From NCBI GenBank assembly GCA_951406725.2, contig OX597830.1, forward strand, positions 67,704,001 to 67,768,000: a stretch of DNA of 64,000 nt, given 5' to 3'. Positions within the stretch are counted from its first letter, which is position 1. Every line of letters begins with the position of its first letter. The notes below the pieces were generated by a model. It was given only the letters and a program-made list of their open reading frames with translations. It did no database searches and was not told the origin of the DNA. Origin of the DNA: Octopus vulgaris (taxonomy: Eukaryota). Shown piece after piece: positions 17,382 through 56,520 of this stretch. Made by a program: the position numbers and the translations under genes.

Positions 17382-17385
<4 letters not shown>

Positions 17386-17454
<69 letters not shown>

Positions 17455-17475
17455 GTGAGAGAGAGAAGGAGGAGA
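17386..17475. repeat. (GA)n/(GAAA)n microsatellite
   Basis: Directly visible. Confidence 0.95.
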
Positions 17476-17881
17476 TGGTAAAGTGGTTAACATTCATGTG
17501 TTGAGTTCAAATCCACTGTTGAGACATGTGTTTCTATGTACATAACTTTATTTTATATTGTCACAACTCGGCTCTAAGGAATTAGTACCAAAACAATTTA
17601 GTTCAGTCTCAGACCAGAATAACAGTTGACTCTATCTATTTTACTATTGTCATTGAAATTTGGTTCTGATAATGTCACTATAAATCATCCCTGAAATGTG
17701 TTACAGCTAAGCTCACATTAAATTCGTTTTATATAATGCCTTTATTTACAGGGAGACAACGTTATAGGATAGTATGTGTGTGTTTTAAAGGAATTTTCAA
17801 AATATTTATTCATTCTTAGATAACTTCTTATTTGAAGATCTAATTTTAATGAATTCTTTAAATTTCTTCTTTTATTATCAG

Positions 17882-32941: not shown

Positions 32942-32942
<1 letters not shown>

Positions 32943-33401
32943 TAGCATTAAAGACCCGTCGTTGCCGGGTCATAGTGCTAGTGCATGTATATTTGTGTAT
33001 ATATATGTGTACATATTACATGTACATCTATATATATACATCTACACATAAAATACAAAATACAAGGTTATATCTTGATATCGCTAGTGATAACAATACT
33101 CAAAATATATAACAGACTGGAATTGTTAGCCCGTCAATTGTATCTTGTCCTCCCTCTTGTATAGAAGTGTGGCTACAATCCAGCCTACCTCTACTTCTGG
33201 GGATGGGGGCATTTTAAATTTTTTTCCGGACGTCCTACATCCCAGATATAAAGGTAAAAATAAAATATTTCCACTTTGCAAGTTTGAGTCAAGTACTCCC
33301 TTGCACGCTCCGTTGACTCGAATCTTGCTTCTATTGTGGTGAATTTACCGCCTCTGATTAGATACCTTTCATAGTAGCACCAAGACACTTTTCGAAGGTG
33401 C
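32942..33401 (-). mobile_element. Helitron 3' end (left part of the element hosting the Tx1 cluster)
   Basis: Minus strand GACCCG-gcaacga-CGGGTC hairpin followed 7 nt later by CTAG|T, the canonical Helitron 3' terminus. Confidence 0.65.
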
Positions 33402-33658
33402 TTTCCTCCATGTTGTTTTATTATTACCCACAAGGGGCGAACACAGATGGGACAATACAATATGATGATGGGGTCAGACAAACGAATGGGTTTTTACAAT
33501 AAATCGAATTTAAAAATTTTCATGAATTACAATAAATGGACAGAAATCGATGATAGGACAGACCGGAAGACATTACGGGTGGAGTGGGTGCGGGTTTAGC
33601 TCGGACCCCACGAGCCCCGCCTCCCCACTGATACTTTTGGTTGCGCTTGGTATTACAT

Positions 33659-36600
33659 TTATGTTGTATCTTTCACTCGCAACTTTCGTGCTACATCCTT
33701 CCATCGTTCTTCATACACTCTCCTAGTCAGGCATATTCTCTCCAGCCCTATCTTCCTTTTCAGGTGAAAGATGAAATAATTCATCAAACCAGGGCCGGAG
33801 ATGAACTTGCCTGACTGTAAACCTTTCATTCTCGTCTTCCATATCACCTCTTTCGCGATTGCTACTACAACGAGAAAACGAAACTTACCTTCATTCACGA
33901 GGAAATCCGGTGGGTCAATTTTTGTAATCGACTCAGTCGACAGCTGTACTCTTCGTGTACCTGACAACAGCTGTTCGGCATAAACCCACACCTCAGACAC
34001 GTCCGGACAATGAACAATAGCGTGCGGGACGGTTTCCCTATCCCGCCCGCATCTTGGACATATCGGACTGTCTTGGCCACCGTGCCTTGCGAGTTTATCC
34101 CGAACAGGTAGAGCTCCTCTGTAGCATTGCCATGCCAGAGACTTCTGGAAGTTGTCCAGTGTCCTCGGCTCGAACGTACGTCGGAACAGACTGGCCAGCT
34201 GATTATCGTCGAGACCTAGGGTTTCCCCCAAGGTATCTTCACATTCCGCCTCTACCAACCCTCTATAGAAGAATGTGGTGGAACCCCCACCGCAGGCGTT
34301 GCCCGAGCGACGGAATAGCAGGAGAGCCTTGCGACACTCCGTGTACCAAGTACCAAGTTTCGATCTACGATTCAGCCAGGTTTCCCATCCACCGAAACTA
34401 GTGAACTTGGGAAACATCAGTTTTGCTAGCGAAGACCACACCCGTTCACCATCCAGGTAGAGCCACAGATGTCTTAACCTCAGCGCATGTCTGCGCATCA
34501 TCAGCCAAGGCATCCCTAGCCCACCCTTTAACGGTTGTTGACAGCAAGTAGAGCGTTTCACAAGTGGTTTCCCGCCCTTCCACAAGAAGTAGAAGAGCTG
34601 TCTTTCCAACTTGATCAACCACGAATCAGGGCAAGGAACGACGGAAAGGCGGTAGGTGATAACCGATGCGATAAACACATTGGCCACCTCCGCCCTCCCT
34701 TTCAGGGATAGCCACCGCCAAGACCAGGTCTTGGCTACTGCAGCCACCTTGCTCGTTACCTCGCCCCAATTCTTCTCTATTTGGAGGTCTGGACCGAACC
34801 AGACCCCTAGCAGTTTAATCGGACCCTCCGTCCAACGTCCCACGACGCTGTCAGGAGGCATCGACTTGCCTCTCCAGGTGCCGAGTTGCAAGCCGACTGA
34901 CTTTTCGCGATTAACTTTTGCTCCTGTCACCGTCTCGTACACCTCTATGGCCTTGCCTACTTTACATAGGTGGTCCATTTCGGTTACGATGATGGTGATG
35001 TCATCCGCGTACGCTGACACTGATTTTCCATTACCTGGCTGTCTCGGGATGCCGCTCAGTTTTCGCAGTAATGGCTCAAGAGCCATCACGTACAAAAGCG
35101 GGGAGAGCGGACACCCTTGACGAACCGAGCGTTTGATTTTGAACGGCTTCGACAAGAAGCCGTTCACCCGAACTACCGAGTCGATGTTATCATAAATTTC
35201 GATAATCCACCTGAGGAATCCAAGGCTCAGCCCGAACTGTGCCAGGGCAGATACCAGGTAACGATGGTCGACCCTATCAAAAGCTTTAGATTGGTCTAAA
35301 TGGACCAGTGCCCCACCCTTGCCAGAATCACTATTAAACCCCTCTATAGTGTACCGCATTAGATGGAGATTATCCTGAATGGATCTGCCCGGAACGGCAC
35401 ATGTCTGTGCCCCTCCGATCAGACCATCCGCGACACGCGCCAATCTTTTCGATAACACTTTGGCCAAAATCTTCAACTCTGTGTTTAGCAGAGTGATGGG
35501 CCTGAAATTATCAATGCACTCCCCCTTGCTCGGGTCCTTTCTGACGAGAGTCACTACTCCCCGGCGCACAGATCTGGGTATAAGCCCGTTCTGCTGCCAG
35601 TTCGCGTAGACCTCCGCCAGTAGGTGCCCGAACAAGTCTGGCATACTCTTATATAACTCATAGGGTAGACCATCCAAACCCGGCGCCTTGCCCGCGCCGC
35701 AGTCCGCCATTGCCTCAACCACCTCCTCAGGCGTGATTGGCCCTTCACAGCCCTCCGCATCTCGCCCCGATAAGCGCGGCAGACCGTCGAGTAGGTCCGT
35801 AAAGGCCCTCCTCCTATCCAGTCCGCCGCACTCACCGAAAAGCTGAGCGAAGTGCTCCTGAAAGGCCTCACACATCTCCTCGGGTTCGTTTATCAACTCA
35901 CCTTGTTGGTTCGTCAAAGATCGAATCGTGGCATCGTTACCATGCTGAGCTTCCACCACTCGGGCCCATCTCACGGCGTTGATTCCTTCACATCCCATAT
36001 GACGGATTCTAGCCCTGACAATGCAGCCCATGTGTTTGGCCTCGAGGTGCTGGTTTAACACCAGTCTCTTGGCCGCCACCTGAGCCGCAGAGCCAGTTTT
36101 CATGGCTTCCTCTAATTCCTTAACTAGAGTAGTTTCCCTTCTAGCCTCTCTAGCCACTACTCCTATGCTATATCTAATAGACTCAAACTTGATGGCTCGT
36201 TTGAGGGCGTACCACCATTTGTTATTAATGATGGTACCAGATAGTGCCCTCTGAATTATATTCCTAATCCGGTCTTTGTACTCCTTAATCGCCAAAAGGG
36301 ACGTATTAAGTTTCCAGTAACCGGATCCTCTATTTTTAACCTTATCTATGTCAAGCTTACAAGTGACCATTTTATGATCACTGTAGCTGATCGGGTAAAA
36401 CTGTGGACACTTAGCTATTTTACTGTCTACTTTTCTAATTAGTATTCTATCTAGATATGACCTGGAAGATCCGTCGCTGTTTGACCATGTCCACAATGGA
36501 GCGTTCGGAAATTCCAGCCTATAAGGATCTGCTAGCTCAAAGCGGCTTAGCAGTTCCATGAAGCCACTGTTGCCTTTTCTATCTGGACACGAGCCAACAT

Positions 36601-37054
36601 AATCTACATCCGCTTTGCAAATTGTGTTAAAGTCTCCTAGCACCACTAATGAATGCGAAGTACCAAGAAAGTTTTCTAGTTCACGAAAATAATCACTTTG
36701 CCCTGTATGGTTGGGTGCGTAAATTGCAACCAGTCTGATAACTTTACCATTACTGAACGTCAAATCCATGACGACCAGCCTACCTTCTGGATCTGCAAAA
36801 ATTAACTTTTTCTCAGAAACCCGGTTTCTTTTTAATAGGACCAACACCCCACTCCCGCCTGTAGGACTGCCAGGAGAGAAAAAACTCTCGTAGCCGTCAA
36901 ACAGCGGGAGTAGACCTCTTGGCCCCTCTAACCGGGTTTCTGTAGCAACAATAACATCTAAATTACGCGACCTGATATCATGCAGGAAGCGACCTTGCTT
37001 CCAGCCTGCTCCCAGGCCGCGCACATTTAAACAACCAACATAAATGTAATCCAT
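33659..37054 (-). CDS. Tx1 ORF2, intact 1131 aa: APE endonuclease, reverse transcriptase, C-terminal zinc finger
   Basis: CLNVRG, TET, IYAPN, GDFN, SYLDRI, SDHK, YWKLN, APGLDG, FRPITLLN, DQSKAFDRV, VRQGCPLSP, AYADD, CPRC..ETVPHAIVHC. Confidence 0.96.
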   Translation of the reverse strand: MDYIYVGCLNVRGLGAGWKQGRFLHDIRSRNLDVIVATETRLEGPRGLLPLFDGYESFFSPGSPTGGSGVLVLLKRNRVSEKKLIFADPEGRLVVMDLTFSNGKVIRLVAIYAPNHTGQSDYFRELENFLGTSHSLVVLGDFNTICKADVDYVGSCPDRKGNSGFMELLSRFELADPYRLEFPNAPLWTWSNSDGSSRSYLDRILIRKVDSKIAKCPQFYPISYSDHKMVTCKLDIDKVKNRGSGYWKLNTSLLAIKEYKDRIRNIIQRALSGTIINNKWWYALKRAIKFESIRYSIGVVAREARRETTLVKELEEAMKTGSAAQVAAKRLVLNQHLEAKHMGCIVRARIRHMGCEGINAVRWARVVEAQHGNDATIRSLTNQQGELINEPEEMCEAFQEHFAQLFGECGGLDRRRAFTDLLDGLPRLSGRDAEGCEGPITPEEVVEAMADCGAGKAPGLDGLPYELYKSMPDLFGHLLAEVYANWQQNGLIPRSVRRGVVTLVRKDPSKGECIDNFRPITLLNTELKILAKVLSKRLARVADGLIGGAQTCAVPGRSIQDNLHLMRYTIEGFNSDSGKGGALVHLDQSKAFDRVDHRYLVSALAQFGLSLGFLRWIIEIYDNIDSVVRVNGFLSKPFKIKRSVRQGCPLSPLLYVMALEPLLRKLSGIPRQPGNGKSVSAYADDITIIVTEMDHLCKVGKAIEVYETVTGAKVNREKSVGLQLGTWRGKSMPPDSVVGRWTEGPIKLLGVWFGPDLQIEKNWGEVTSKVAAVAKTWSWRWLSLKGRAEVANVFIASVITYRLSVVPCPDSWLIKLERQLFYFLWKGGKPLVKRSTCCQQPLKGGLGMPWLMMRRHALRLRHLWLYLDGERVWSSLAKLMFPKFTSFGGWETWLNRRSKLGTWYTECRKALLLFRRSGNACGGGSTTFFYRGLVEAECEDTLGETLGLDDNQLASLFRRTFEPRTLDNFQKSLAWQCYRGALPVRDKLARHGGQDSPICPRCGRDRETVPHAIVHCPDVSEVWVYAEQLLSGTRRVQLSTESITKIDPPDFLVNEGKFRFLVVVAIAKEVIWKTRMKGLQSGKFISGPGLMNYFIFHLKRKIGLERICLTRRVYEERWKDVARKLRVKDTT

Positions 37055-37068
37055 TACTTACCTTTATA

Positions 37069-38440
37069 TCAGTGGTTCGGTTTTTCTTCTTCTTCCTTCT
37101 CTTTTTCTGGGCCTCGTGGGGGAGTCTGACGTAGGCCCTCGAATATATGTGGAGATGTTACATCCAACCTAAGTGGGCCTACGTCATGGAAGAATTCTGA
37201 CTTTATCCGCCCGTAATCCTTCCGGTCTATTTTGTAAATTACAAAGTCATTTTTTTTCTCTACTTTCTTCACTTTGGCCATGGCTGCCAACACGTTTCCG
37301 AGTCTGCTATTTGATGCTTTTACGGCCATATATGAGTTCATTGACTCTTTTTTCTTTTTTAAAATTACTCTGGGAGGGGTGGTTTCCGTTTTTCTTTTTT
37401 TTTTCCGATAATTTTTGCCCACCCCTCCTCATTTATCTTTTCCTCGCTCTTTTTTTTCTCCGCCGCTGGTTCTGCTGTTACCATCACCTCCACACCTTCA
37501 GTCTTCCCTTCTGGGCCGTCTGACGCTGCTTCTGGTGACACATTGTCTTCTTTTTCTTTTGGCTTAGGTGCTTCCTGCGGTTTGGGTTGGGGCTGGCATT
37601 CCGCCCTTACATGCCCCTTCTTACCGCAGCCGAAGCACCTCGGCTTTCTGCCCTCTACGAAGACTGTGACTCTTTCATCTTCGCTTATCCTTAGAGTCTC
37701 TGGGATCTCTTCCAGGGTTTGTACTTCTGCTTGTATGGCTATTATTATCTTTTGCCCTTTCCAGAATTCTTCTTCTTCTACGGTGGCCTGGAGGATGTTT
37801 ATTTTTTCCTCCAGGCCTACCATAACTGCTGCCACTAGGACTTCGGCATCCGCTTCTGGCGGGATGTTGTTCATTGTGATCTTGGAAGTTCTCTTGCCTT
37901 TATACAGGGGTAGGAGAACAATATCCTCCGCTTTTATGGGTTCCATGGATAGCTTCTTGCTACCTCCTCTGACGTGAATCTCACCTCCACTGTGCCGTAT
38001 TTCTTCCCTCGATTGATATACGTAATTTTATCCATTATTGGCTTTAAGCAGTTTTCAATCTTTTTCTCCTCTATTTTTTGGATTGCTCTGTTTGTTATAC
38101 TGAATGTCTTATAGATTATTCTCCTATTCGAAATATCCTCCTGTATTTGGGCGTTTGAAGCCACGGTTACTTCCGTGCCCTCTTTTGACACACAGTCCGC
38201 ATGTTTTCCCAGGTTGTCCACGTTAATTTTTTTAATTTTCTTCCCAGCCACTTCAGCGAATTTTTTTGCTGGAGTTGATGCTGGTACTGGTTTTACCATT
38301 TTCTTGGGCGACGCCGCCTCTTTTTTCTTCGGCGACAGCGCCTCTTTTTTTCTTGGCGACAACGCCTCTTTTTTACTTGGCGACAACGCCGGGTATTCAT
38401 CCTCGCTCGTCACGGGCGAATAAGTGATGGGGGACTCCAT
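37069..38440 (-). CDS. Tx1 ORF1 (SPKK repeats, RRM-like region, CCHC knuckle) with two 1-bp frameshifts that may be sequencing errors
   Basis: Pieces 37934-38449, 37365-37946 and 37069-37422; KYGTVEVRF, VEGRKPRCFGCGKKGHVRAEC; breaks lie in short A runs. Confidence 0.8.
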
Positions 38441-38818
38441 CTTGAACAAATGGCTTTAACAAGCCTTTGGTAATCTAAATTAATTGTAGTTTTCCCCCAC
38501 TGAGGGGGGAACACCAACGCGAAGTCTTCGCGCGAAGGTTGACTTCGTCAGTTAGACAACAATGGACAAAAAAAGGTAGACCAACAGTATATAATAACAG
38601 AGATAAGTAGTATGAGAGCAAAAATATATATCAACTTACTAATAACGCAAAAAATTGATTTCCTCCATGTTATTTCTTTATTACCCACCAGGGGCTACGA
38701 AGAATGGCGGACATAACAAAACATGGGGGACATAGAACAATATGATTAAATTTATGAATGAAATGAAAATGAAAAAATGATAATATGAAAGCGATGCTAA
38801 CGGCCCCCTCCGCCAGCA

Positions 38819-40183
38819 TCACTTACCTGTCCTTTTGTTTTCACTGTCACCTGAATGTTCATTCCCAATACGAAGACCATCCATATCCATTCTTACTCCG
38901 AAACTGTCCTCCATATATTCCACGAATTCATCGCTCATTCTTGTATCTTTCACCTCCCAATTCTCCCTTTCACACCTCAACACAAACTCATCTATATTCT
39001 TCTTTTCCAGCACTGCATATCTGGTCCCATCCATTTCATACCATTCATACTCCTCCATTACCCTTTCAACCTCTTTCTGTTCAGTCACAATATAAATGTT
39101 CGGCCTGGGTTCGTTTTCAAACTCTTGTCTGTCTGTATTATTATTTTTCTTTTGTTTTCTTGTTGGAGGGGAGCGGGTGGGTTCACTGTCTGCAGGGGAA
39201 GGGTGGGATTCAGAGGGTGCGGGTGGTGTTGGGGTGGGTTGGGGCTTCGCACAGTTTTTCTTTTTCTTTCTTTTTCTCTTTTTTCTTCCTTCTTCCCACT
39301 CTTGTTGCATCTCCTCTTCTTCTGTCGTTTCTTTTTCCCTTTGGTTCTCTTTGGTTTCTTCCTCTTTTGGGGCTTCCGCGACGATTTCCTTTTCTTTTTC
39401 CTTTGGTGGGGGAGGGCAGTAGGCTCTTATGTGACCCCTCAGGCCACACTTGTAGCACCTGGGCGCCCTACCCTCCACCCACACTCTCATAATAATATTT
39501 CCAGTTTTTATACTGTCCGTAAGCTTTTCTATAACTTCCGCCTCCGTCTGTATGTTCATTACTAGTGTGGCACCTCTCACGCCTTCATATTTCATAATGG
39601 CGTGGAGGATGTCCACTTTATCTTCATTTCCTTTGATAACCGCAGCCGTTATTAATTCGCCCTCTAGGTGTGGAGGTATTCCTTCCACCCTAATTCTGGT
39701 GGTCCTTCTATTCAAATACGAGGGGAACAAGTAAAACTTTTCTGTACTCACCACCTTGGCTGCTATATTCCTGGCTGCTTTCTCACTTTTAAATTGTACC
39801 GTTATGGTTCCATATTCTAATCCTTTTGTCATGTACACAATTTCTTCTCCTGTCTGTTTGAAAGCCTCTTCAATTGCTTCCATGTTAATCACTTCCATTT
39901 TTCTACCTCCATTCATAAATACTTTATATTTAATGGTTCTACGATGGAACCAGTCTCCGCGCCCTGCTAGAGGCAACAGCTCAACCTCTCCGTTCTCCTC
40001 CTCCTTCATGAACTCCTGGAAGTCCGTCAACTTAGCCAGGTCTATCTCTTTTTCTGTTGACTTCTTCGTTATACCTGCGTAGGTACTTTCCATTTTTTTC
40101 ACCGCCAACTCCTCCTCAGATGTCGACGAATTTTCAGAGAAATTTCTCCCTTCCATCTCATCCGTTTGGTAGAGGCGGCTCAT
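38819..40183 (-). CDS. ORF1/gag-like CCHC protein of the divergent unit 0 (~454 aa, intact)
   Basis: Open frame; YGTITVQF, RIRVEGIPP, VEGRAPRCYKCGLRGHIRAYC; start taken at the ATG of MSRLYQ. Confidence 0.85.
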   Translation of the reverse strand: MSRLYQTDEMEGRNFSENSSTSEEELAVKKMESTYAGITKKSTEKEIDLAKLTDFQEFMKEEENGEVELLPLAGRGDWFHRRTIKYKVFMNGGRKMEVINMEAIEEAFKQTGEEIVYMTKGLEYGTITVQFKSEKAARNIAAKVVSTEKFYLFPSYLNRRTTRIRVEGIPPHLEGELITAAVIKGNEDKVDILHAIMKYEGVRGATLVMNIQTEAEVIEKLTDSIKTGNIIMRVWVEGRAPRCYKCGLRGHIRAYCPPPPKEKEKEIVAEAPKEEETKENQREKETTEEEEMQQEWEEGRKKRKRKKKKNCAKPQPTPTPPAPSESHPSPADSEPTRSPPTRKQKKNNNTDRQEFENEPRPNIYIVTEQKEVERVMEEYEWYEMDGTRYAVLEKKNIDEFVLRCERENWEVKDTRMSDEFVEYMEDSFGVRMDMDGLRIGNEHSGDSENKRTGK

Positions 40184-40500
40184 AGTCGCCTCAGACCGAA
40201 AAACGGCCTCCCGAACAGAAAACGTGCGACGCACAGAACCAGTGCGACGCGAAACCGCACCAACCGACGTTCCAATTCCGCAACCACAATTCACTTTTTG
40301 TTCTTTTTTCTTTTTTAACCGAATTTTACAGAGCGCAAAAAAACGCGTATTTCTTTATTACCCACTAAGGGGCTACGAAGAATGGCGGACATAACAAAAC
40401 ATGGGGACATAGAACATTATAATTAAACTTTATGAACATGAATTGTTAAACGAAAAAAATGATAAAATGAAAGCGATACCAACGGCCCCGTCCGTCAGCA

Positions 40501-41916
40501 TCACTTACCTGTCCTTTGTTTTTCATAGTCACTTGAATGTTCTTTGCCAATACGAATAAATTCCATATCCATTCTTACTCCGAAATACTCATCCATATTT
40601 TCCACGAATTCATCGCTCATTCTTATATCTTTCACCTCCCAATTCTCCCTTTCACACCTCCCCATAAACTCACCTATGTTCTTCTTTTCAATCACAGCAT
40701 ACCTAGTCTCTCCAACATCATACCATTTATACTCTTCCATTAGACTTTTAACTTCCTCTGTTCAGTCATAGTACAAATGTACGGCCTGGGTTCGATTTCA
40801 ATCTCTTGTGTGTGTGTATTCTTTTTTCTTTTGTTTTCTTGTTGGGGGGGAGCGGGTGGGTTCAATGTCTGCATGGATAGGGTGGGACTCAGAGGGTGTG
40901 GGAGGTTTTGGGGTAGATTGGAGTTCCATATTATTTTCTTTTTTTCCACATATTCTTCTCTTCCTCTTACTTCCAGCTTCCTTCCATTTCTGTGTATTCT
41001 CTTCCTCTGTTTCCTTCTCCTCTGGTTTCTGCTTCTCTCTCTCTGGTTCGGGATCCATTTCTTTCCCTGGGGGAGGGCAGAAGGCTCTTATGTGACCCCT
41101 CAGGCCACACTTGTAACAACGTGGAGCCCTGCCCTCCACCCACACTCTCATGATCACTTCTCCCAGTCTGATGCTTTCCGTCAGGTCCACCAGTACCTCG
41201 GTCTCTGCCTGTACGTTCAGCTCCACTGTTACGCCTCTCCAGCCCTCGGACTTAACCGAGGCATGGAGAATATCCACTTCGTCCTCGTGGCCGCTGATCA
41301 CAGCCGCCACAATCCATTCTGCCTCCACGTTTGGTGGCACTCCCTCCACCCTTATTCGTGTAATCCTCCTGTTTAAATACGTAGGTAACAGTGTTACCTT
41401 TTCCGACTTCACCGCCTTCGCTGCCATCTTCCTCGCTGCAGATTCACTTTTAAAGTGCACAACTACGGTCCCGTACTTGGATCCTCGAGTCAGAAAATTT
41501 ATTTCCTCCTCAGTTCTTCGCAGGGCTTCCTCTATCCATTCCATGGTTACAACTTCTACCCTCTTCCTTTCGTTTGCGAACACCCTGTAAACAATGGTCC
41601 TCTTATCATACCATTCTTTTCTCCTGGGTGTCGGTGATAGTTCCACCTCACCGCTTTCCTTTTTCATGTATTTCTGGTAACTTGGCAACTTGGCCATGTC
41701 GACCCCTTTCTCTTCCGCCTTCTTGGTTACACCGGCATAGGTATAACCCAGCTTCTCTTCCAATTCCCTTGCTGCCATTTCTAGCTCCTTCTCAGACGTA
41801 GGCAAGTCTGATAAAGACTCGAAAACTCCAGCCTTTTCTTCCATCAGCTTCATTGCAATTGCCTGTTCCAGTTCCTCATCTGTCGTGGACAAGTCTGTTA
41901 GAGACTCATAATCCAT
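40501..41916 (-). pseudogene. Unit 1 ORF1-like gene with small indels
   Basis: Fragments 40798-41916, 40740-40949 and 40501-40740 reconstruct the unit protein. Confidence 0.8.
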
Positions 41917-42231
41917 TTCCCTCTGTCTGACAGACCGAAAACGGCCGCCAAAACAGAAAAAGTGTAACGCGCTGAACGAGCGAAACGCGAAACCGCGTCA
42001 ACGCCGTTCAGAATTTCCACAACAACAACAACGCTTTTTGTTCTTTTTTACCGAATTTTCAGGAGCCGAAAAAACGCGTATTTCTTTATTACCCACTAAG
42101 GGGCTACGAAGAATGGCGGACATAACAAAACATGGGGACATAGAACATTATAATTAAACTTTATGAACATGAATTGTTAAACGAAAAAAATGATAAAATG
42201 AAAGCGATACCAACGGCCCCGTCCGTCAGCA

Positions 42232-43649
42232 TCACTTACCTGTCCTTTGTTTTTCATAGTCACTTGAATGTTCTTTGTCAATACGAATAAATTCCATATC
42301 CATTCTTACTCCGAAATACTCATCCATATTTTCCACGAATTCATCGCTCATTCTTATATCTTTCACCTCCCAATTCTCCCTTTCACACCTCCCCATAAAC
42401 TCACCTATGTTCTTCTTTTCAATCACAGCATACCTAGTCTCTCCAACATCATACCATTTATACTCTTCCATTAGACTTTTAACTTCTTTCTGTTCAGTCA
42501 TAGTACAAATGTACGGCCTGGGTTCGATTTCAATCTCTTGTGTGTGTGTATTCTTTTTTTTCTTTTGTTTTCTTGTTGGGGGGAGCGGGTGGGTTCAATG
42601 TCTGCATGGATAGGGTGGGACTCAGAGGGTGTGGGAGGTTTTGGGGTAGATTGGAGTTCCATATTATTTTCTTTTTTTCCACATATTCTTCTCTTCCTCT
42701 TACTTCCAGCTTCCTTCCATTTCTGTGTATTCTCTTCCTCTGTTTCCTTCTCCTCTGGTTTCTGCTTCTCTCTCTCTGGTTCGGGATCCATTTCTTTCCC
42801 TGGGGGAGGGCAGAAGGCTCTTATGTGACCCCTCAGGCCACACTTGTAACAACGTGGAGCCCTGCCCTCCACCCACACTCTCATGATCACTTCTCCCAGT
42901 CTGATGCTTTCCGTCAGGTCCACCAGTACCTCGGTCTCTGCCTGTACGTTCAGCTCCACTGTTACGCCTCTCCAGCCCTCGGACTTAACCGAGGCATGGA
43001 GAATATCCACTTCGTCCTCGTGGCCGCTGATCACAGCCGCCACAATCCATTCTGCCTCCACGTTTGGTGGCACTCCCTCCACCCTTATTCGTGTAATCCT
43101 CCTGTTTAAATACGTAGGTAACAGTGTTACCTTTTCCGACTTCACCGCCTTCGCTGCCATCTTCCTCGCTGCAGATTCACTTTTAAAGTGCACAACTACG
43201 GTCCCGTACTTGGATCCTCGAGTCAGAAAATTTATTTCCTCCTCAGTTCTTCGCAGGGCTTCCTCTATCCATTCCATGGTTACAACTTCTACCCTCTTCC
43301 TTTCGTTTGCGAACACCCTGTAAACAATGGTCCTCTTATCATACCATTCTTTTCTCCTGGGTGTCGGTGATAGTTCCACCTCACCGCTTTCCTTTTTCAT
43401 GTATTTCTGGTAACTTGGCAACTTGGCCATGTCGACCCCTTTCTCTTCCGCCTTCTTGGTTACACCGGCATAGGTATAACCCAGCTTCTCTTCCAATTTC
43501 CTTGCTGCCATTTCTAGCTCCTTCTCAGACGTAGGCAAGTCTGATAAAGACTCGAAAACTCCAGCCTTTTCCTCCATCAGCTTCACTGCAATTGCCTGTT
43601 CCAGTTCCTCATCCGTCGTGGACAAGTCTGTTAGAGACTCATAGTCCAT
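42232..43649 (-). pseudogene. Unit 2 ORF1-like gene, single indel in a G run
   Basis: Fragments 42498-43649 and 42232-42501. Confidence 0.8.
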
Positions 43650-43965
43650 TTCCTTCTGTCTGACAGACCGAAAACGGCCGCCAAAACAGAAAAAGTGTAA
43701 CGCGCTGAACGAGCGAAACGCGAAACCGCGTCAACGCCGTTCAGAATTTCCACAACAACAACAACGCTTTTTGTTCTTTTTTACCGAATTTTCAGGAGCG
43801 CAAAAAAACGCGTATTTCTTTATTACCCACTAAGGGGCTACGAAGAATGGCGGACATAACAAAACATGGGGACATAGAACATTATAATTAAACTATATGA
43901 ACATGAAGTGTTAAACGAAAAAAATGATAAAATGAAAGCGATACCAACGGCCCCGTCCGTCAGCA

Positions 43966-45380
43966 TCACTTACCTGTCCTTTGTTTTTCATAGTCACTTG
44001 AATGTTCTTTGCCAATACGAATAAATTCCATATCCATTCTTACTCCGAAATACTCATTCATATTTTCCACGAATTCATCGCTCATTCTTATATCTTTCAC
44101 CTCCCAATTCTCCCTTTCACACCTCCCCATAAACTCACCTATGTTCTTTTTTTCAATCACAGCATACCTAGTCTCTCCAACATCATACCGTTTATACTCT
44201 TCCATTAGACTTTTAACTTCCCTCTGTTCAGTCATAGTACAAATGTACGGCCTGGGTTCGATTTCAATCTCTTGTGTGTGTGTATTCTTTTTTTCTTTTG
44301 TTTTCTTGTTGGGGGGGAGCGGGTGGGTTCAATGTCTGCATGGATAGGGTGGGACTCAGAGGGTGTGGGAGGTTTTGGGGTAGATTGGAGTTCCATATTA
44401 TTTTCTTTTTTTCCACATATTCTTCTCTTCCTCTTACTTCCAGCTTCCTTCCATTTCTGTGTATTCTCTTCCTCTGTTTCCTTCTCCTCTGGTTTCTGCT
44501 TCTCTCTCTCTGGTTCGGGATCCATTTCTTTCCCTGGGGGAGGGCAGAAGGCTCTTATGTGACCCCTCAGGCCACACTTGTAACAACGTGGAGCCCTGCC
44601 CTCCACCCACACTCTCATGATCACTTCTCCCAGTCTGATGCTTTCCGTCAGGTCCACCAGTACCTCGGTCTCTGCCTGTACGTTCAGCTCCACTGTTACG
44701 CCTCTCCAGCCCTCGGACTTAACCGAGGCATGGAGAATATCCACTTCGTCCTCGTGGCCGCTGATCACAGCCGCCACAATCCATTCTGCCTCCACGTTTG
44801 GTGGCACTCCCTCCACCCTTATTCGTGTAATCCTCCTGTTTAAATACGTAGGTAACAGTGTTACCTTTTCCGACTTCACCGCCTTCGCTGCCATCTTCCT
44901 CGCTGCAGATTCACTTTTAAAGTGCACAACTACGGTCCCGTACTTGGATCCTCGAGTCAGAAAATTTATTTCCTCCTCAGTTCTTCGCAGGGCTTCCTCT
45001 ATCCATTCCATGGATACAACTTCTACCCTCTTCCTTTCGTTTGCGCACACCCTGTAAACAATGGTCCTCTTATCATACCATTCTTTTCTCCTGGGTGTCG
45101 GTGATAGTTCCACCTCACCGCTTTCCTTTTTCATGTATTTCTGGTAACTTGGCAACTTGGCCATGTCGACCCCTTTCTCTTCCGCCTTCTTGGTTACACC
45201 GGCATAGGTATAACCCAGCTTCTTCCAATTTCCTTGCTGCCATTTCTAGCTCCTTCTCAGACATAGGCAAGTCTGATAAAGACTCAAAAACTCCAGCCTT
45301 TTCCTCCATCAGCTTCACTGCAATTGCCTGTTCCAGTTCCTCATCCGTCGTGGACAAGTCTGTTAAGACTCATAGTCCAT
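43966..45380 (-). pseudogene. Unit 3 ORF1-like gene, several small indels
   Basis: Fragments 45115-45357, 44232-45164 and 43966-44235. Confidence 0.8.
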
Positions 45381-45695
45381 TTCCTTCTGTCTGACAGACC
45401 GAAAACGGCCGCCAAAACAGAAAAAGTGTAACGCGCTGAACGAGCGAAACGCGAAACCGCGTCAACGCCGTTCAGAATTTCCACAACAACAACAACCTTT
45501 TTGTTCTTTTTTACCGAATTTTCAGGAGCCGAAAAAAACGCGTATTTCTTTATTACCCACTAAGGGGCTACGAAGAGTGGCGGACATAACAAAACATGGG
45601 GACATAGAACATTATAATTAAACTTTATGAACATGAATTGTTAAACGAAAAAAATGATAAAATGAAAGCGATACCAACGGCCCCGTCCGTCAGCA

Positions 45696-47060
45696 TCACT
45701 TACCTGTCCTTTGTTTTTCATAGTCACTTGAATGTTCTTTGTCAATACGAATAAATTCCATATCCATTCTTACTCCGAAATACTCATCCATATTTTCCAC
45801 GAATTCATCGCTCATTCTTATATCTTTCACCTCCCAATTCTCCCTTTCACACCTCCCCATAAACTCACCTATGTTCTTCTTTTCAATCACAGCATACCTA
45901 GTCTCTCCAACATCATACCATTTATACTCTTCCATTAGACTTTTAACTTCTTTCTGTTCAGTCATAGTACAAATGTACGGCCTGGGTTCGATTTCAATCT
46001 CTTGTGTGTGTGTATTCTTTTTTTTCTTTTGTTTTCTTGTTGGGGGGGAGCGGGTGGGTTCAATGTCTGCATGGATAGGGTGGGACTCAGAGGGTGTGGG
46101 AGGTTTTGGGGTAGATTGGAGTTCCATATTATTTTCTTTTTTTCCACATATTCTTCTCTTCCTCTTACTTCCAGCTTCCTTCCATTTCTGTGTATTCTCT
46201 TCCTCTGTTTCCTTCTCCTCTGGTTTCTGCTTCTCTCTCTCTGGTTCGGGATCCATTTCTTTCCCTGGGGGAGGGCAGAAGGCTCTTATGTGACCCCTCA
46301 GGCCACACTTGTAACAACGTGGAGCCCTGCCCTCCACCCACACTCTCATGATCACTTCTCCCAGTCTGATGCTTTCCGTCAGGTCCACCAGTACCTCGGT
46401 CTCTGCCTGTACGTTCAGCTCCACTGTTACGCCTCTCCAGCCCTCGGACTTAACCGAGGCATGGAGAATATCCACTTCGTCCTCGTGGCCGCTGATCACA
46501 GCCGCCACAATCCATTCTGCCTCCACGTTTGGTGGCACTCCCTCCACCCTTATTCGTGTAATCCTCCTGTTTAAATACGTAGGTAACAGTGTTACCTTTT
46601 CCGACTTCACCGCCTTCGCTGCCATCTTCCTCGCTGCAGATTCACTTTTAAAGTGCACAACTACGGTCCCGTACTTGGATCCTCGAGTCAGAAAATTTAT
46701 TTCCTCCTCAGTTCTTCGCAGGGCTTCCTCTATCCATTCCATGGTTACAACTTCTACCCTCTTCCTTTCGTTTGCGAACACCCTGTAAACAATGGTCCTC
46801 TTATCATACCATTCTTTTCTCCTGGGTGTCGGTGATAGTTCCACCTCACCGCTTTCCTTTTTCATGTATTTCTGGTAACTTGGCAACTTGGCCATGTCGA
46901 CCCCCCTCTCCTCCGCCCTCCTGGTTACACCGGCATAGGTATAACCCAGCTTCTGATCCATTTTCCTCACTGCCATTTCTAGCTCCTCCTCAGACGTAGA
47001 CAAGTCTGTTAAAGACTCAAAAACTGCAGCCGTATCTCCCATCAGGTAGGGGTTGTCCAT
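45696..47060 (-). CDS. Unit 4 ORF1/gag-like protein, intact 454 aa, variant N-terminus
   Basis: Uninterrupted ORF; CYKCGLRGHIRAFC knuckle; one acidic N-terminal repeat instead of two. Confidence 0.9.
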   Translation of the reverse strand: MDNPYLMGDTAAVFESLTDLSTSEEELEMAVRKMDQKLGYTYAGVTRRAEERGVDMAKLPSYQKYMKKESGEVELSPTPRRKEWYDKRTIVYRVFANERKRVEVVTMEWIEEALRRTEEEINFLTRGSKYGTVVVHFKSESAARKMAAKAVKSEKVTLLPTYLNRRITRIRVEGVPPNVEAEWIVAAVISGHEDEVDILHASVKSEGWRGVTVELNVQAETEVLVDLTESIRLGEVIMRVWVEGRAPRCYKCGLRGHIRAFCPPPGKEMDPEPEREKQKPEEKETEEENTQKWKEAGSKRKRRICGKKENNMELQSTPKPPTPSESHPIHADIEPTRSPPTRKQKKKKNTHTQEIEIEPRPYICTMTEQKEVKSLMEEYKWYDVGETRYAVIEKKNIGEFMGRCERENWEVKDIRMSDEFVENMDEYFGVRMDMEFIRIDKEHSSDYEKQRTGK

Positions 47061-47393
47061 TTCCTTCTGTCTGACAGACCGAAAACGGCCGCCAAAACAG
47101 AAAAAGTGTAACGCGCTGAACGAGCGAAACGCGAAACCGCGTCAACGCCGTTCAGAATTTCCACAACAACAACAACGCTTTTTGTTCTTTTTTACCGAAT
47201 TTTCAGGAGCCGAAAAAAAACACGGAGCCGAAAAAACGCGTATTTCTTTATTACCCACTAAGGGGCTACGAAGAATGGCGGACATAACAAAACATGGGGA
47301 CATAGAACATTATAATTAAACTTTATGAACATGAATTGTTAAACGAAAAAAATGATAAAATGAAAGCGATACCAACGGCCCCGTCCGTCAGCA

Positions 47394-48810
47394 TCACTTA
47401 CCTGTCCTTTGTTTTTCATAGTCACTTGAATGTTCTTTGCCAATACGAATAAATTCCATATCCATTCTTACTCCGAAATACTCATTCATATTTTCCACGA
47501 ATTCATCGCTCATTCTTATATCTTTCACCTCCCAATTCTCCCTTTCACACCTCCCCATAAACTCACCTATGTTCTTCTTTTCAATCACAGCATACCTAGT
47601 CTCTCCAACATCATACCATTTATACTCTTCCATTAGACTTTTAACTTCCCTCTGTTCAGTCATAGTACAAATGTACGGCCTGGGTTCGATTTCAATCTCT
47701 TGTGTGTGTGTATTCTTTTTTTCTTTTGTTTTCTTGTTGGGGGGAGCGGGTGGGTTCAATGTCTGCATGGATAGGGTGGGACTCAGAGGGTGTGGGAGGT
47801 TTTGGGGTAGATTGGAGTTCCATATTATTTTCTTTTTTTCCACATATTCTTCTCTTCCTCTTACTTCCAGCTTCCTTCCATTTCTGTGTATTCTCTTCCT
47901 CTGTTTCCTTCTCCTCTGGTTTCTGCTTCTCTCTCTCTGGTTCGGGATCCATTTCTTTCCCTGGGGGAGGGCAGAAGGCTCTTATGTGACCCCTCAGGCC
48001 ACACTTGTAACAACGTGGAGCCCTGCCCTCCACCCACACTCTCATGATCACTTCTCCCAGTCTGATGCTTTCCGTCAGGTCCACCAGTACCTCGGTCTCT
48101 GCCTGTACGTTCAGCTCCACTGTTACGCCTCTCCAGCCCTCGGACTTAACCGAGGCATGGAGAATATCCACTTCGTCCTCGTGGCCGCTGATCACAGCCG
48201 CCACAATCCATTCTGCCTCCACGTTTGGTGGCACTCCCTCCACCCTTATTCGTGTAATCCTCCTGTTTAAATACGTAGGTAACAGTGTTACCTTTTCCGA
48301 CTTCACCGCCTTCGCTGCCATCTTCCTCGCTGCAGATTCACTTTTAAAGTGCACAACTACGGTCCCGTACTTGGATCCTCGAGTCAGAAAATTTATTTCC
48401 TCCTCAGTTCTTCGCAGGGCTTCCTCTATCCATTCCATGGTTACAACTTCTACCCTCTTCCTTTCGTTTGCGAACACCCTGTAAACAATGGTCCTCTTAT
48501 CATACCATTCTTTTCTCCTGGGTGTCGGTGATAGTTCCACCTCACCGCTTTCCTTTTTCATGTATTTCTGGTAACTTGGCAACTTGGCCATGTCGACCCC
48601 TTTCTCTTCCGCCTTCTTGGTTACACCGGCATAGGTATAACCCAGCTTCTCTTCCAATTCCCTTGCTGCCATTTCTAGCTCCTTCTCAGACGTAGGCAAG
48701 TCTGATAAAGACTCGAAAACTCCAGCCTTTTCCTCCATCAGCTTCACTGCAATTGCCTGTTCCAGTTCCTCATCCGTCGTGGACAAGTCTGTTAGAGACT
48801 CATAGTCCAT
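47394..48810 (-). pseudogene. Unit 5 ORF1-like gene, homopolymer indels
   Basis: Fragments 47692-48810 and 47394-47843. Confidence 0.8.
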
Positions 48811-49154
48811 TTCCTTCTGTCTGACAGACCGAAAACGGCCGCCAAAACAGAAAAAGTGTAACGCGCTGAACGAGCGAAACGCGAAACCGCGTCAACGCCG
48901 TTCAGAATTTCCACAACAACAACAACGCTTTTTGTTCTTTTTTACCGAATTTTCAGGAGCCGAAAAAAAACGACTGAGCAGAAAGCAGAAAGCAGTAAGG
49001 CTATTTCTTTATTACCCACTAAGGGGCTACGAAGAGTGCCTGACATAACAAAACATGGGGACATAGAACATTATAATTAAACTTTATGAACATGAAGTGT
49101 TAAACGAAAAAAATGATAAAATGAAAGCGATACCAACGGCCCCGTCCGTCAGCA

Positions 49155-50572
49155 TCACTTACCTGTCCTTTGTTTTTCATAGTCACTTGAATGTTCTTTG
49201 CCAATACGAATAAATTCCATATCCATTCTTACTCCGAAATACTCATTCATATTTTCCACGAATTCATCGCTCATTCTTATATCTTTCACCTCCCAATTCT
49301 CCCTTTCACACCTCCCCATAAACTCACCTATGTTCTTTTTTTCAATCACAGCATACCTAGTCTCTCCAACATCATACCGTTTATACTCTTCCATTAGACT
49401 TTTAACTTCCCTCTGTTCAGTCATAGTACAAATGTACGGCCTGGGTTCGATTTCAATCTCTTGTGTGTGTGTATTCTTTTTTTTCTTTTGTTTTCTTGTT
49501 GGGGGGGAGCGGGTGGGTTCAATGTCTGCATGGATAGGGTGGGACTCAGAGGGTGTGGGAGGTTTTGGGGTAGATTGGAGTTCCATATTATTTTCTTTTT
49601 TTCCACATATTCTTCTCTTCCTCTTACTTCCAGCTTCCTTCCATTTCTGTGTATTCTCTTCCTCTGTTTCCTTCTCCTCTGGTTTCTGCTTCTCTCTCTC
49701 TGGTTCGGGATCCATTTCTTTCCCTGGGGGAGGGCAGAAGGCTCTTATGTGACCCCTCAGGCCACACTTGTAACAACGTGGAGCCCTGCCCTCCACCCAC
49801 ACTCTCATGATCACTTCTCCCAGTCTGATGCTTTCCGTCAGGTCCACCAGTACCTCGGTCTCTGCCTGTACGTTCAGCTCCACTGTTACGCCTCTCCAGC
49901 CCTCGGACTTAACCGAGGCATGGAGAATATCCACTTCGTCCTCGTGGCCGCTGATCACAGCCGCCACAATCCATTCTGCCTCCACGTTTGGTGGCACTCC
50001 CTCCACCCTTATTCGTGTAATCCTCCTGTTTAAATACGTAGGTAACAGTGTTACCTTTTCCGACTTCACCGCCTTCGCTGCCATCTTCCTCGCTGCAGAT
50101 TCACTTTTAAAGTGCACAACTACGGTCCCGTACTTGGATCCTCGAGTCAGAAAATTTATTTCCTCCTCAGTTCTTCGCAGGGCTTCCTCTATCCATTCCA
50201 TGGTTACAACTTCTACCCTCTTCCTTTCGTTTGCGAACACCCTGTAAACAATGGTCCTCTTATCATACCATTCTTTTCTCCTGGGTGTCGGTGATAGTTC
50301 CACCTCACCGCTTTCCTTTTTCATGTATTTCTGGTAACTTGGCAACTTGGCCATGTCGACCCCTTTCTCTTCCGCCTTCTTGGTTACACCGGCATAGGTA
50401 TAACCCAGCTTCTTTCCAATTTCCTTGCTGCCATTTCTAGCTCCTTCTCAGACGTAGACAAGTCTGATAAAGACTCGAAAACTCCAGCCTTTTCCTCCAT
50501 CAGCTTCACTGCAATTGCCTGTTCCAGTTCCTCATCCGTCGTGGACAAGTCTGTTAGAGACTCATAGTCCAT
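49155..50572 (-). pseudogene. Unit 6 ORF1-like gene, one N-terminal indel, 399 aa open downstream
   Basis: Fragments 50384-50572 and 49155-50354. Confidence 0.8.
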
Positions 50573-50960
50573 TTCCTTCTGTCTGACAGACCGAAAACGG
50601 CCGCCAAAACAGAAAAAGTGTAACGCGCTGAACGAGCGAAACGCGAAACCGCGTCAACGCCGTTCAGAATTTCCACAACAACAACAACGCTTTTTGTTCT
50701 TTTTTACCGAATTTTCAGGAGCCGAAAAAACCGCGACCTTTTTTCCTCTACATTGTATACTTTATAGACAATAGTCTTTTCTTTTCTTTTATTTTTTATT
50801 ATCCATCTCTTTTTTTTATTACCCACTAAGGGGCTACGAAGAATGGCGGACATAACAAAACATGGGGACATAGAACATTATAATTAAACTTTATGAAAAT
50901 GAATTGTTAAACGAAAAAATGATAAAATGAAAGCGATACCAACGGCCCCGTCCGTCAGCA

Positions 50961-52370
50961 TCACTTACCTGTCCTTTGTTTTTCATAGTCACTTGAATGT
51001 TCTTTGCCAATACGAATAAATTCCATATCCATTCTTACTCCGAAATACTCATCCATATTTTCCACGAATTCATCGCTCATTCTTATATCTTTCACCTCCC
51101 AATTCTCCCTTTCACACCTCCCCATAAACTCACCTATGTTCTTCTTTTCAATCACAGCATACCTAGTCTCTCCAACATCATACCATTTATACTCTTCCAT
51201 TAGACTTTTAACTTCTTTCTGTTCAGTCATAGTACAAATGTACGGCCTGGGTTCGATTTCAATCTCTTGTGTGTGTGTATTCTTTTTTTTCTTTTGTTTT
51301 CTTGTTGGGGGGGAGCGGGTGGGTTCAATGTCTGCATGGATAGGGTGGGACTCAGAGGGTGTGGGAGGTTTTGGGGTAGATTGGAGTTCCATATTATTTT
51401 CTTTTTTTCCACATATTCTTCTCTTCCTCTTACTTCCAGCTTCCTTCCATTTCTGTGTATTCTCTTCCTCTGTTTCCTTCTCCTCTGGTTTCTGCTTCTC
51501 TCTCTCTGGTTCGGGATCCATTTCTTTCCCTGGGGGAGGGCAGAAGGCTCTTATGTGACCCCTCAGGCCACACTTGTAACAACGTGGAGCCCTGCCCTCC
51601 ACCCACACTCTCATGATCACTTCTCCCAGTCTGATGCTTTCCGTCAGGTCCACCAGTACCTCGGTCTCTGCCTGTACGTTCAGCTCCACTGTTACGCCTC
51701 TCCAGCCCTCGGACTTAACCGAGGCATGGAGAATATCCACTTCGTCCTCGTGGCCGCTGATCACAGCCGCCACAATCCATTCTGCCTCCACGTTTGGTGG
51801 CACTCCCTCCACCCTTATTCGTGTAATCCTCCTGTTTAAATACGTAGGTAACAGTGTTACCTTTTCCGACTTCACCGCCTTCGCTGCCATCTTCCTCGCT
51901 GCAGATTCACTTTTAAAGTGCACAACTACGGTCCCGTACTTGGATCCTCGAGTCAGAAAATTTATTTCCTCCTCAGTTCTTCGCAGGGCTTCCTCTATCC
52001 ATTCCATGGTTACAACTTCTACCCTCTTCCTTTCGTTTGCGAACACCCTGTAAACAATGGTCCTCTTATCATACCATTCTTTTCTCCTGGGTGTCGGTGA
52101 TAGTTCCACCTCACCGCTTTCCTTTTTCATGTATTTCTGGTAACTTGGCAACTTGGCCATGTCGACCCCTTTCTCTTCCGCCTTCTTGGTTACACCGGCA
52201 TAGGTATAACCCAGCTTCTTTCCAATTTTCCTTCACTGCCATTTCTAGCTCCTCCTCAGACGTAGCAAGTCTGATAAAGACTCAAAAACTCCAGCCTTTT
52301 CTCCATCAGCTTCATGCAATTGCCTGTTCCAGTTCCTCATCAGGAAAGTCTGTTAGGACTCATAGTCCAT
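50961..52370 (-). pseudogene. Unit 7 ORF1-like gene, garbled N-terminus, 399 aa open downstream
   Basis: ORF 50961-52160 plus an indel-rich 5' segment. Confidence 0.75.
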
Positions 52371-52681
52371 TTCCTTCTGTCTGACAGACCGAAAACGGCC
52401 GCCAAAACAGAAAAAGTGTAACGCGCTGAACGAGCGAAACGCGAAACCGCGTCAACGCCGTTCAGAATTTCCACAACAACAACAACGCTTTTTGTTCTTT
52501 TTACCGAATTTCAGGAGCCGAAAAAAGGGCACGTATTTTTTATTACCCACTAAGGGGCTACGAAGGCGGACATAACAAAACATGGGGACATAGAACATTA
52601 TAATTAAACTTTATGAACATGTATTGTTAAACGAAAAAAATGATAAAATGAAAGCGATACCAACGGCCCCGTCCGTCAGCA

Positions 52682-54089
52682 TCACTTACCTGTCCTTTGT
52701 TTTTCATAGTCACTTGAATGTTCTTTGCCAATACGAATAAATTCCATATCCATTCTTACTCCGAAATACTCATTCATATTTTCCACGAATTCATCGCTCA
52801 TTCTTATATCTTTCACCTCCCAATTCTCCCTTTCACACCTCCCCATAAACTCACCTATGTTCTTCTTTTCAATCACAGCATACCTAGTCTCTCCAACATC
52901 ATACCGTTTATACTCTTCCATTAGACTTTTAACTTCCCTCTGTTCAGTCATAGTACAAATGTACGGCCTGGGTTCGATTTCAATCTCTTGTGTGTGTGTA
53001 TTCTTTTTTTTCTTTTGTTTTCTTGTTGGGGGGAGCGGGTGGGTTCAATGTCTGCATGGATAGGGTGGGACTCAGAGGGTGTGGGAGGTTTTGGGGTAGA
53101 TTGGAGTTCCATATTATTTTCTTTTTTTCCACATATTCTTCTCTTCCTCTTACTTCCAGCTTCCTTCCATTTCTGTGTATTCTCTTCCTCTGTTTCCTTC
53201 TCCTCTGGTTTCTGCTTCTCTCTCTCTGGTTCGGGATCCATTTCTTTCCCTGGGGGAGGGCAGAAGGCTCTTATGTGACCCCTCAGGCCACACTTGTAAC
53301 AACGTGGAGCCCTGCCCTCCACCCACACTCTCATGATCACTTCTCCCAGTCTGATGCTTTCCGTCAGGTCCACCAGTACCTCGGTCTCTGCCTGTACGTT
53401 CAGCTCCACTGTTACGCCTCTCCAGCCCTCGGACTTAACCGAGGCATGGAGAATATCCACTTCGTCCTCGTGGCCGCTGATCACAGCCGCCACAATCCAT
53501 TCTGCCTCCACGTTTGGTGGCACTCCCTCCACCCTTATTCGTGTAATCCTCCTGTTTAAATACGTAGGTAACAGTGTTACCTTTTCCGACTTCACCGCCT
53601 TCGCTGCCATCTTCCTCGCTACAGATTCACTTTTAAAGTGCACAACTACGGTCCCGTACTTGGATCCTCGAGTCAGAAAATTTATTTCCTCCTCAGTTCT
53701 TCGCAGGGCTTCCTCTATCCATTCCATGGTTACAACTTCTACCCTCTTCCTTTCGTTTGCGAACACCCTGTAAACAATGGTCCTCTTATCATACCATTCT
53801 TTTCTCCTGGGTGTCGGTGATAGTTCCACCTCACCGCTTTCCTTTTTCATGTATTTCTGGTAACTTGGCAACTTGGCCATGTCGACCCCTTTCTCTTCCG
53901 CCTTCTTGGTTACACCGGCATAGGTATAACCCAGCTTCTGATCCATTTTCCTCACTGCTATTTCTAGCTCCTCCTCAGACGTAGACAAGTCTGATAAAGA
54001 CTCAAAACTCCAGCCTTTTCCTCCATCAGCTTCACTGCAATTGCCCGTTCCAGTTCCTCATCAGTCGTGGAAAGGGACTCATAGTCCAT
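52682..54089 (-). pseudogene. Unit 8 ORF1-like gene with indels and a hybrid N-terminus
   Basis: Fragments 52948-53988 and 52682-52951. Confidence 0.75.
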
Positions 54090-54404
54090 TTCCTTCTGTC
54101 TGACAGACCGAAAACGGCCGCCAAAACAGAAAAAGTGCAACGCGCTGAACGAGCGAAACGCGAAACCGCGTCAACGCCGTTCAGAATTTCCACAACAACA
54201 ACAACGCTTTTTGTTCTTTTTTACCGAATTTTCAGGAGCCGAAAAAACGCGTATTTCTTTATTACCCACTAAGGGGCTACGAAGAATGGCGGACATAACA
54301 AAACATGGGGACATAGAACATTATAATTAAACTATATGAACATGAAGTGTTAAACGAAAAAAATGATAAAATGAAAGCGATACCAACGGCCCCGTCCGTC
54401 AGCA

Positions 54405-55822: not shown

Positions 55823-56003
55823 TTCCTTCTGTCTGACAGACCGAAAACGGCCGCCAAAACAGAAAAAGTGTAACGCGCTGAACGAGCGAAACGCGAAACC
55901 GCGTCAACGCCGTTCAGAATTTCCACAACAACAACAACCTTTTTTGTTCTTTTTTACCGAATTTTCAGGAGCCGAAAAAAAAACACGGAGCCGAAAAAAC
56001 GCG

Positions 56004-56520
56004 ACCTTTCTCTACATTCTATACTTTATAGACAATAGTCTTTTCTTTAATTTAATTTTTTATTATCCATCTGGACTATTCCATTTCTGCACGTTAATTT
56101 TATTTTTAATTTATTCCCATTCATGTGAAACCAATTATTCAAGTTCAAATCATTGATGCAATTTTATACCAATTGCTATTTTTACTTTTGTTATGTTATG
56201 ATTATATTATACTTTAGTTTGATTTTAATTATTACTTACTACATATAATTCAATTGTTATTATTATTTTTATTGTTAAAGTGAAAGTATCTGACATAAAA
56301 TAGAGAAACGTTTTTGTTTCACTTTTAACACGTAATACTGAAATAGTGGAGAAGATATGATATTGCTATGGGCTCGCTCTAGGCAAGAAGTTGAACATTT
56401 CTTTTACCCATGAAACTACATGGACCCTAAGTAAGGCATGTGCAAAATTTGAATGAAATTGGTTGTGTAGTTCTCAAGTTTTAGGGAAACACACAGACAG
56501 ATAGACAGACAGACACATTG
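56004..56520 (-). mobile_element. Probable Helitron 5' portion (right part of the host element)
   Basis: Minus strand (GTCT)n followed by AACTACACAACCAATTTCATTCAAATTTTGCACATG, the usual layout near the 5' end of non-autonomous invertebrate Helitrons; the terminal TC is not visible. Confidence 0.5.

Follow-up and report, generated by a model that had tools for sequence, protein, structure and literature searches.

A Tx1-like LINE and ORF1-only relatives that appear to stack at one base of a non-autonomous Helitron in Octopus vulgaris

The 64,000-nucleotide stretch of the Octopus vulgaris genome analysed here (assembly GCA_951406725.2, contig OX597830.1, positions 67,704,001 to 67,768,000; hereafter the window) carries a full-length Tx1-like long interspersed nuclear element (LINE), followed by an array of units that each hold only a counterpart of its first open reading frame (ORF1), all inserted into a DNA repeat. 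The original prediction was that two different elements join one short target at the same base, by repeated, site-specific and stacking insertion; genome-wide comparison upholds this, and the independence of the insertions is argued from the divergence of hosts versus inserts. We consider it highly probable that, at dozens of loci, one and the same base of a non-autonomous Helitron has received independent insertions of the LINE and of five or more ORF1-only relatives. These were likely made through target-primed reverse transcription (TPRT), begun by a nick from the sequence-preferring ORF2 protein of the LINE. The system is young, with about 1.5% between copies.

The elements at the locus and their host

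The features of the locus are collected in Table 1. The LINE has a fixed tail that ends in TAATAATAAAACA, with no poly(A). Its ORF2 retains the catalytic motifs ETR, GDFN, YLDR and SDH and the Pfam domains Exo_endo_phos, RVT_1 and zf-RVT, can be aligned to L1 endonuclease structures, and has the Tx1-type layout of an apurinic/apyrimidinic (AP) endonuclease, a reverse transcriptase (RT) and a C-terminal zinc motif without RNase H. The single named match among 25 for the LINE protein was the 'Transposon TX1 149 kDa' protein, at 26%, the Atlas clusters being without names, and we treat the Tx1 label as a lead. A CX2CX4HX4C knuckle is found in ORF1 of the LINE and of the units; a Pfam search of these ORF1s returned no match, and their Atlas look-alikes, zf-CCHC and a ZCCHC3-like RBD (0.89-0.92), which come most often from Mollusca, are a lead only. 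A fixed ORF1 frameshift, which would make this a split LINE, was rejected: the positions of the breaks vary by copy, ORF1 is intact in copy L155, and assembly indels are possible.

Table 1. Features of the insertion locus, in window coordinates
Feature	Position	Strand
Host Helitron 3' half; hairpin 32953-32971, 8 nt, CTAG, then T	32942..33413	-
Captured Tx1-type ORF1 within Helitron 3' half	33135-33413	-
Target 12-mer ACATGGAGGAAA, downstream (host-side) copy	33402..33413	-
Full-length Tx1-like LINE, subfamily A (ACAT class), 5.24 kb	33414..38658	-
Intact ORF2, 1131 amino acids: AP endonuclease, reverse transcriptase, zf-RVT	33659..37054	-
ORF1 with zinc knuckle, three frames (two frameshifts) in this copy, end approximate	37060..38440	-
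Target 12-mer, upstream copy between U0 and LINE	38659..38670	-
U0, ORF1-only non-autonomous element; ORF 38819-40183, CCHC knuckle	38671..40347	-
Nine head-to-tail U1 ORF1-only units; most boundaries without target duplication	40348..56006	-
Second copy (~70 bp) of host sequence from just upstream of target, within U1 array; has the 50742 motif	50740..50808	-
Host Helitron 5' half; 5'-most ~25 bases missing here; contains the 56007 motif	56007..56515	-

Beyond the second target copy lie ten 1.7-kb units, each with one ORF1-like gene, a CCHC knuckle and no RT. The U1 units are 0.1-2.7% apart and about 21% from U0. LINE and units have 3' tails in common that are of fixed length and without poly(A), with U0 and the LINE sharing a GCCCC..GTGGGTAATAA tail. 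A single ORF1, no RT and a LINE-type 3' tail is the layout of HAL1-like elements, although these ones are not L1-derived. The ORF1-only gene ends in CAG/GTAAGT (here and below a slash marks the break within a motif), a strong splice-donor-like sequence, at 38822-38830 of the minus strand and in every U1 unit.

The left and far flanks of the insertions are the two halves of one repeat. A search of the genome (2.8 Gb, 227 contigs) with the left flank gave 1834 candidates, and 20 of the 29 other loci among the matches listed are empty sites, reading ...AATGTAGAGAAAAAAGAAGATTTGAAC directly joined to ACATGGAGGAAAGCACC... at the point of insertion. The repeat is about 1.0-1.7 kb long (typically about 1.2 kb), begins A/TC and ends in a hairpin, eight bases and CTAG/T. 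Its 5' end, TATATATAAAACTGAG, was found in 15 of 30 empty sites, most preceded by ATC, and a T follows CTAG at all 13 of the 3' ends that a strict pattern caught among the 30. Nine of 14 Rep-bearing Helitron loci have a CCCG-GCAACG-CGGG hairpin, 8 nt and CTAG/T, a design that matches that of the host while the sequence differs; the exact autonomous partner was absent among the 14 Rep loci compared. Judged by these ends and by the gene fragment that it has captured, the host repeat is a non-autonomous Helitron.

The fragment is itself of ORF1 type and contains the target. The ORF1 of the LINE family (intact copy L155) matches 28 of 30 empty hosts, at best with E 1.7e-22 and 39% identity over 99 amino acids, reversed controls giving E 0.27-2.1. 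The donor LINE was not found, none of the seven ORF1s tested exceeding 39%. At L211, in the older host subfamily (ACCTGG), the captured ORF1 is in frame for about 100 codons and the similarity extends to the ORF1 start.

Exact matches to the 13-mer proposed as the target, TTTCCTCCATGTT, are confined to two positions of the window, 33402-33414 and 38659-38671. Matches with up to two mismatches number 6 against 2.9 expected, so the window count alone is uninformative and the case is carried by genome-wide flanks. Both the LINE and U0 do end at the same target base, and both copies of the 13-mer are exact; the common target, however, is the 12-mer ACATGGAGGAAA. In 98 of the first 100 empty sites listed, the base preceding ACMTGG is C, not A, so the target copy comprises 12 bases, and the thirteenth (33414 and 38671) is the final A of each element's own tail. 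This terminal A is retained at off-target copies where the pre-insertion base is C or T. The predicted empty site exists in abundance (943 exact genome matches to a 25-base pattern), with the 12-mer intact. An Rfam scan of 29000-60000 for a small-RNA target gave no match reaching the gathering score.

Target use across the genome and the basis of specificity

The canonical site holds 27 of the 30 best LINE 3'-end matches and all 30 of the best U0 3'-end matches. Best-match samples lean to near-copies, so position-ordered samples of exact patterns were used too. The LINE-type tail has 206 exact copies, a few of which belong to ORF1-only relatives, and 92 (with a search pattern one base shorter at its start) are directly followed by A and a target-like 11-mer. 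Among the first 100 of the 206, 61 lie at the canonical site, another 7 occupy a second site of this Helitron, and the remaining 32 are outside it; for U0 tails the canonical site accounts for 26 of the first 30 of 53. The 123 exact U1 tails lie mostly in arrays, with the canonical site in 5 of the first 30. The consensus flank expected from the original prediction therefore recurs, and with the same repeat at 68 of 100 LINE-type and 26 of 30 U0 tails it well exceeds the more than 20% of flanks that PMC4494074 takes as its measure (this and the other papers are cited from the available part of their text). Subfamily A is about 90% on target (61 ACAT-class tails on, 7 off). The ACCTGG variant is found in 71 of the first 100 empty hosts, but in just 9 of the 92 junctions. 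Conversion of such hosts to ACATGG as the cause of this bias is unsupported, in that the downstream positions of filled hosts show the ACATGG-subfamily variants too (35 of 37 LINE-filled, 17 of 19 U0-filled).

Off target, duplications of 16-19 bp flank 11 of 32 LINE-type tails and 3 of 4 U0 copies, mostly truncated ones, the search range falling short of the 5' ends of many long copies. A truncated copy on target (the second L023 row) has a 16-bp duplication. These make insertion by TPRT likely, with a usual stagger of some 16-17 bases. The off-target sites of subfamily A and U0 present ACAT or close variants after a pyrimidine (a Y/ACAT core), from which the bottom strand would be nicked at 5'-ATGT/R-3' by the sequence-preferring LINE ORF2 protein and the top strand about 16 nt further on. 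ORF1-only elements likely borrow this ORF2 via the common 3' tail. Full-length LINE 5' ends show a target copy of 12 bases, which in 12 of 21 cases differs from the 3' copy, in 8 of them by at least two bases (two of the 21 lie outside the host). The cDNA end would carry a leader resembling the target; by pairing with the overhang, this leader would cut what is visible of the duplication to 12 bases and sometimes overwrite it. Since every insertion would leave a fresh copy of the site, elements stack. At the 5' junctions of L038, L147-L149 and L327, the leader variant ACATGGCGG recurs across several families; we presume its resemblance to be to a YY1-type initiator motif.

The off-target tails revealed two sister LINE groups, an ATT class and a GAT class. 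In a 36-row endonuclease tree, one clade takes in 21 of the 22 ACAT-class rows (the stray row, L320, being classed by pattern alone) and another all 7 ATT-class rows, with the GAT class outside; target class follows this tree, with 5 changes against 13.0 when shuffled (0/200). The ATT group uses CTAAC/AATTCC in hosts without the canonical site, and such deleted hosts are also found empty (4/30). GAT-class copies L314, L319 and L325 have a common repeated 3' flank starting GATACTCAAA or ATATACTCAAA, a third target repeat. Across the three subfamilies the endonucleases are 93-95% identical in DNA, and all have the same beta-hairpin loop between the anchors that PMC1950540 names, two residues short of the grafted Tx1L loop of PDB 2v0r. 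Subfamily A and the GAT group (C) differ by 19-24 amino acids per ~240 endonuclease codons, located in the stretches that follow NVRGL and IYAP and around residues 150-165, as compared with 4-5 per 260 RT codons.

We tentatively suggest that the pad may be self-made: a Helitron would have captured and multiplied part of a Tx1-type ORF1, to which sister LINEs would have retuned their endonuclease, switching core (GAT, ATT, ACAT) through about 20 amino acid changes outside the beta-hairpin loop. Alternatively, the site could be set mainly by RNA-DNA annealing, with the 3' extension of a read-through transcript pairing with the nicked primer and the endonuclease preference being loose. Fixed-length tails without poly(A), off-target sites that retain just the first four or so target bases, and a loop identical in three subfamilies would all suit such pairing, as would the differing 5' 12-mers, which point to an RNA-carried flank; PMC4494074 also discusses the strengthening of targeting by co-transcription. 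We nevertheless hold annealing as the main determinant to be rather unlikely, given that 3' read-through would not select the pyrimidine before the off-target junction, that the changes between A and C fall more in the endonuclease than in RT, and that for Tx1L the endonuclease by itself nicks the element's target (PMC1950540).

Independence of the insertions and growth of the stacks

The stack-forming set consists of the LINE and five ORF1-only families (U0, U1, V, W and X), whose best local ORF1 alignments are 29-58% identical and which occur in many stack orders in forty 10-kb loci. An alternative is that one or a few chance insertions were spread by the Helitron as composites. Pairwise substitution distances, with pairs of too short alignment excluded, are about four times greater for hosts, which are the older: 5.8% for LINE-filled hosts against 1.5% for their LINEs, the host distance being the larger in 616 of 630 pairs. 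U0-filled hosts differ by 5.6% and their inserts by 1.5%, with the host distance larger in 136 of 136 pairs, and host and insert distances are uncorrelated. Nor do filled hosts cluster on a tree of 116 host halves (LINE, 33 changes against 31.7 shuffled; U0, 18 against 17.9). Autonomous Helitrons with long open frames are abundant and the U0 5' junction is nearly identical at most loci, as such hitchhiking would have it, yet stack orders and 5' junctions are otherwise highly varied, both host subfamilies carry inserts, and off-target copies have duplications of their own. Because hosts are more diverged than inserts, filled hosts are unclustered and stack orders vary, we regard hitchhiking as very unlikely and the insertions as independent events.

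The motifs TTTCCTCTACATT at 50742 and TTTCTCTACATT at 56007 are present as described in the original prediction, but that they are an older target-site duplication decayed from CACGTT is scarcely credible: loosely alike as they are, and though a ~70-bp repeat ties the far flank to 50740-50808, the motif at 56007 (minus strand AATGTAGAGAAA) is plain host sequence directly upstream of the target, reads in frame as captured ORF1 codons, and stands beside an intact target in the 20 empty sites among the 29 other host-half matches. The two ~70-bp host copies of the window differ by 4 substitutions and one indel. That the internal copy always comes from another locus is contradicted at L185, where a private deletion is common to it and its own flank.

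As to the order of events in independent insertion, stacks L156 and L162 have one variant in both upstream junctions that is absent from the host-side copy, which fits growth at the upstream target copy, and U0 was seen 3' of a LINE at none of the loci examined. In the window the LINE was probably first; U0 would then have entered the upstream copy, destroying it, and the U1 units would have been added on the 5' side, likely through template jumps and local duplication. About 11 host bases are lost at the U0 5' junction in most loci, and about 11-14 ahead of the target at the U1 junction of the window. Junctions between U units, truncated ones included, are without duplications, as template jumps would give. 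Junction variants are repeated within a 14-unit array, so local or read-through copying would have contributed too. The region G000:C2:138763576-138793211 (L150, L236-L249) has a LINE with 14 U1 units upstream, laid out as in the window; an odd junction (AGCCTTACTGCTTTC...) that recurs there has a single counterpart in the window, near 48990. At L161 and L318-L321, LINE or U1 copies lie inverted or tail to tail, which suggests twin priming or rearranged clusters. Short tandem elements at L160 (positions 2060-2260) and L011 end in the same GCCCCTTGTGGGTAATAA tail, with a head that we take to resemble a tRNA-derived short interspersed nuclear element (SINE), and one LINE copy sits inserted at the head of such an element.

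Several observations weigh against the reading of site-specific, independent stacking. The 32 LINE-type tails outside the Helitron are a sizeable fraction of the 100, and the 5-base core is far too common to account for subfamily A being about 90% on target, so recognition must be longer or be aided by RNA annealing. The host tree is star-like and weakly supported. That the LINE came first rests on the two informative stacks, L156 and L162, and on U0 never lying 3' of a LINE. Finally, 5' leader variants are unclustered on the LINE 5' tree (14 changes against 13.8 shuffled), so the idea that they follow the LINE lineage by simple inheritance is unsupported and was set aside.

Relation to known systems and significance

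A target-specific LINE with riders is a kind of system already known, the closest apparently being Tx1-Mar and SINEU-3 in crocodilian Mariner-N4_AMi and Tx1L in Tx1D; Tx1 families also occur in long terminal repeat and Harbinger elements (PMC4494074). As in the crocodilian case, a Tx1-type LINE and non-autonomous riders have a common preferred site within an abundant non-autonomous DNA transposon, a duplication lies sandwiched between tandem insertions, and hitchhiking was tested and rejected (PMC4494074). The octopus target differs in being a Helitron and in lying within captured Tx1-type ORF1; its riders are ORF1-coding elements of 1.7-1.9 kb, not SINEs headed by small nuclear RNA, and its arrays reach 10-14 units in a young system. 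Tx1L of Xenopus is likewise an AP-endonuclease LINE at a fixed site of a non-autonomous DNA transposon (PMC4494074, PMC1950540), although Tx1D is described as piggyBac-type. HAL1 (half-L1) elements, defined in PMC5753468 as ORF1-only LINE derivatives, resemble the riders in being non-autonomous and coding for ORF1 only, but are derived from L1, whereas here five Tx1-like families have one common target, at which they line up head to tail in arrays.

Recently active L1-Tx1 and Helitron families have been described in an octopus (PMC13282606), in the available main text of which the word 'nested' does not occur; PMC8869645 serves as background only. Our literature search found no LINE targeting a Helitron and no ORF1-only Tx1 elements, although an entry may exist in Repbase Reports, a subscription journal or a supplement. 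What appears to be new is the Helitron target, its origin in a related ORF1, the five ORF1-only riders and the natural series of specificity variants.

Elsewhere in the window, a second Tx1-like LINE at 12200-17480 of the plus strand, with 68% likeness across ORF2, terminates in (AG)n/(GAAA)n repeats and by analogy may target microsatellites like Kibi and Koshi (PMC4494074). Two more RT-coding LINE frames, at 3939-7151 and 8893-10923 of the minus strand, are each flanked by long (AT)n runs.

How AP-endonuclease LINEs gain or switch specificity is an open question, as loop grafting alone failed to transfer the specificity of the Tx1L endonuclease (PMC1950540). With three young subfamilies that have endonucleases 93-95% identical in DNA, the same loop and different cores, the question becomes testable by swapping few residues. 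If the pad is indeed self-made, it would be a living near-isogenic series of how retrotransposon site specificity arises, with ORF1-only riders stacking in the same pad. The Helitron and its captured piece of a related ORF1 join the list of known targets, and the system illustrates how long ORF1-only arrays build up at one site.

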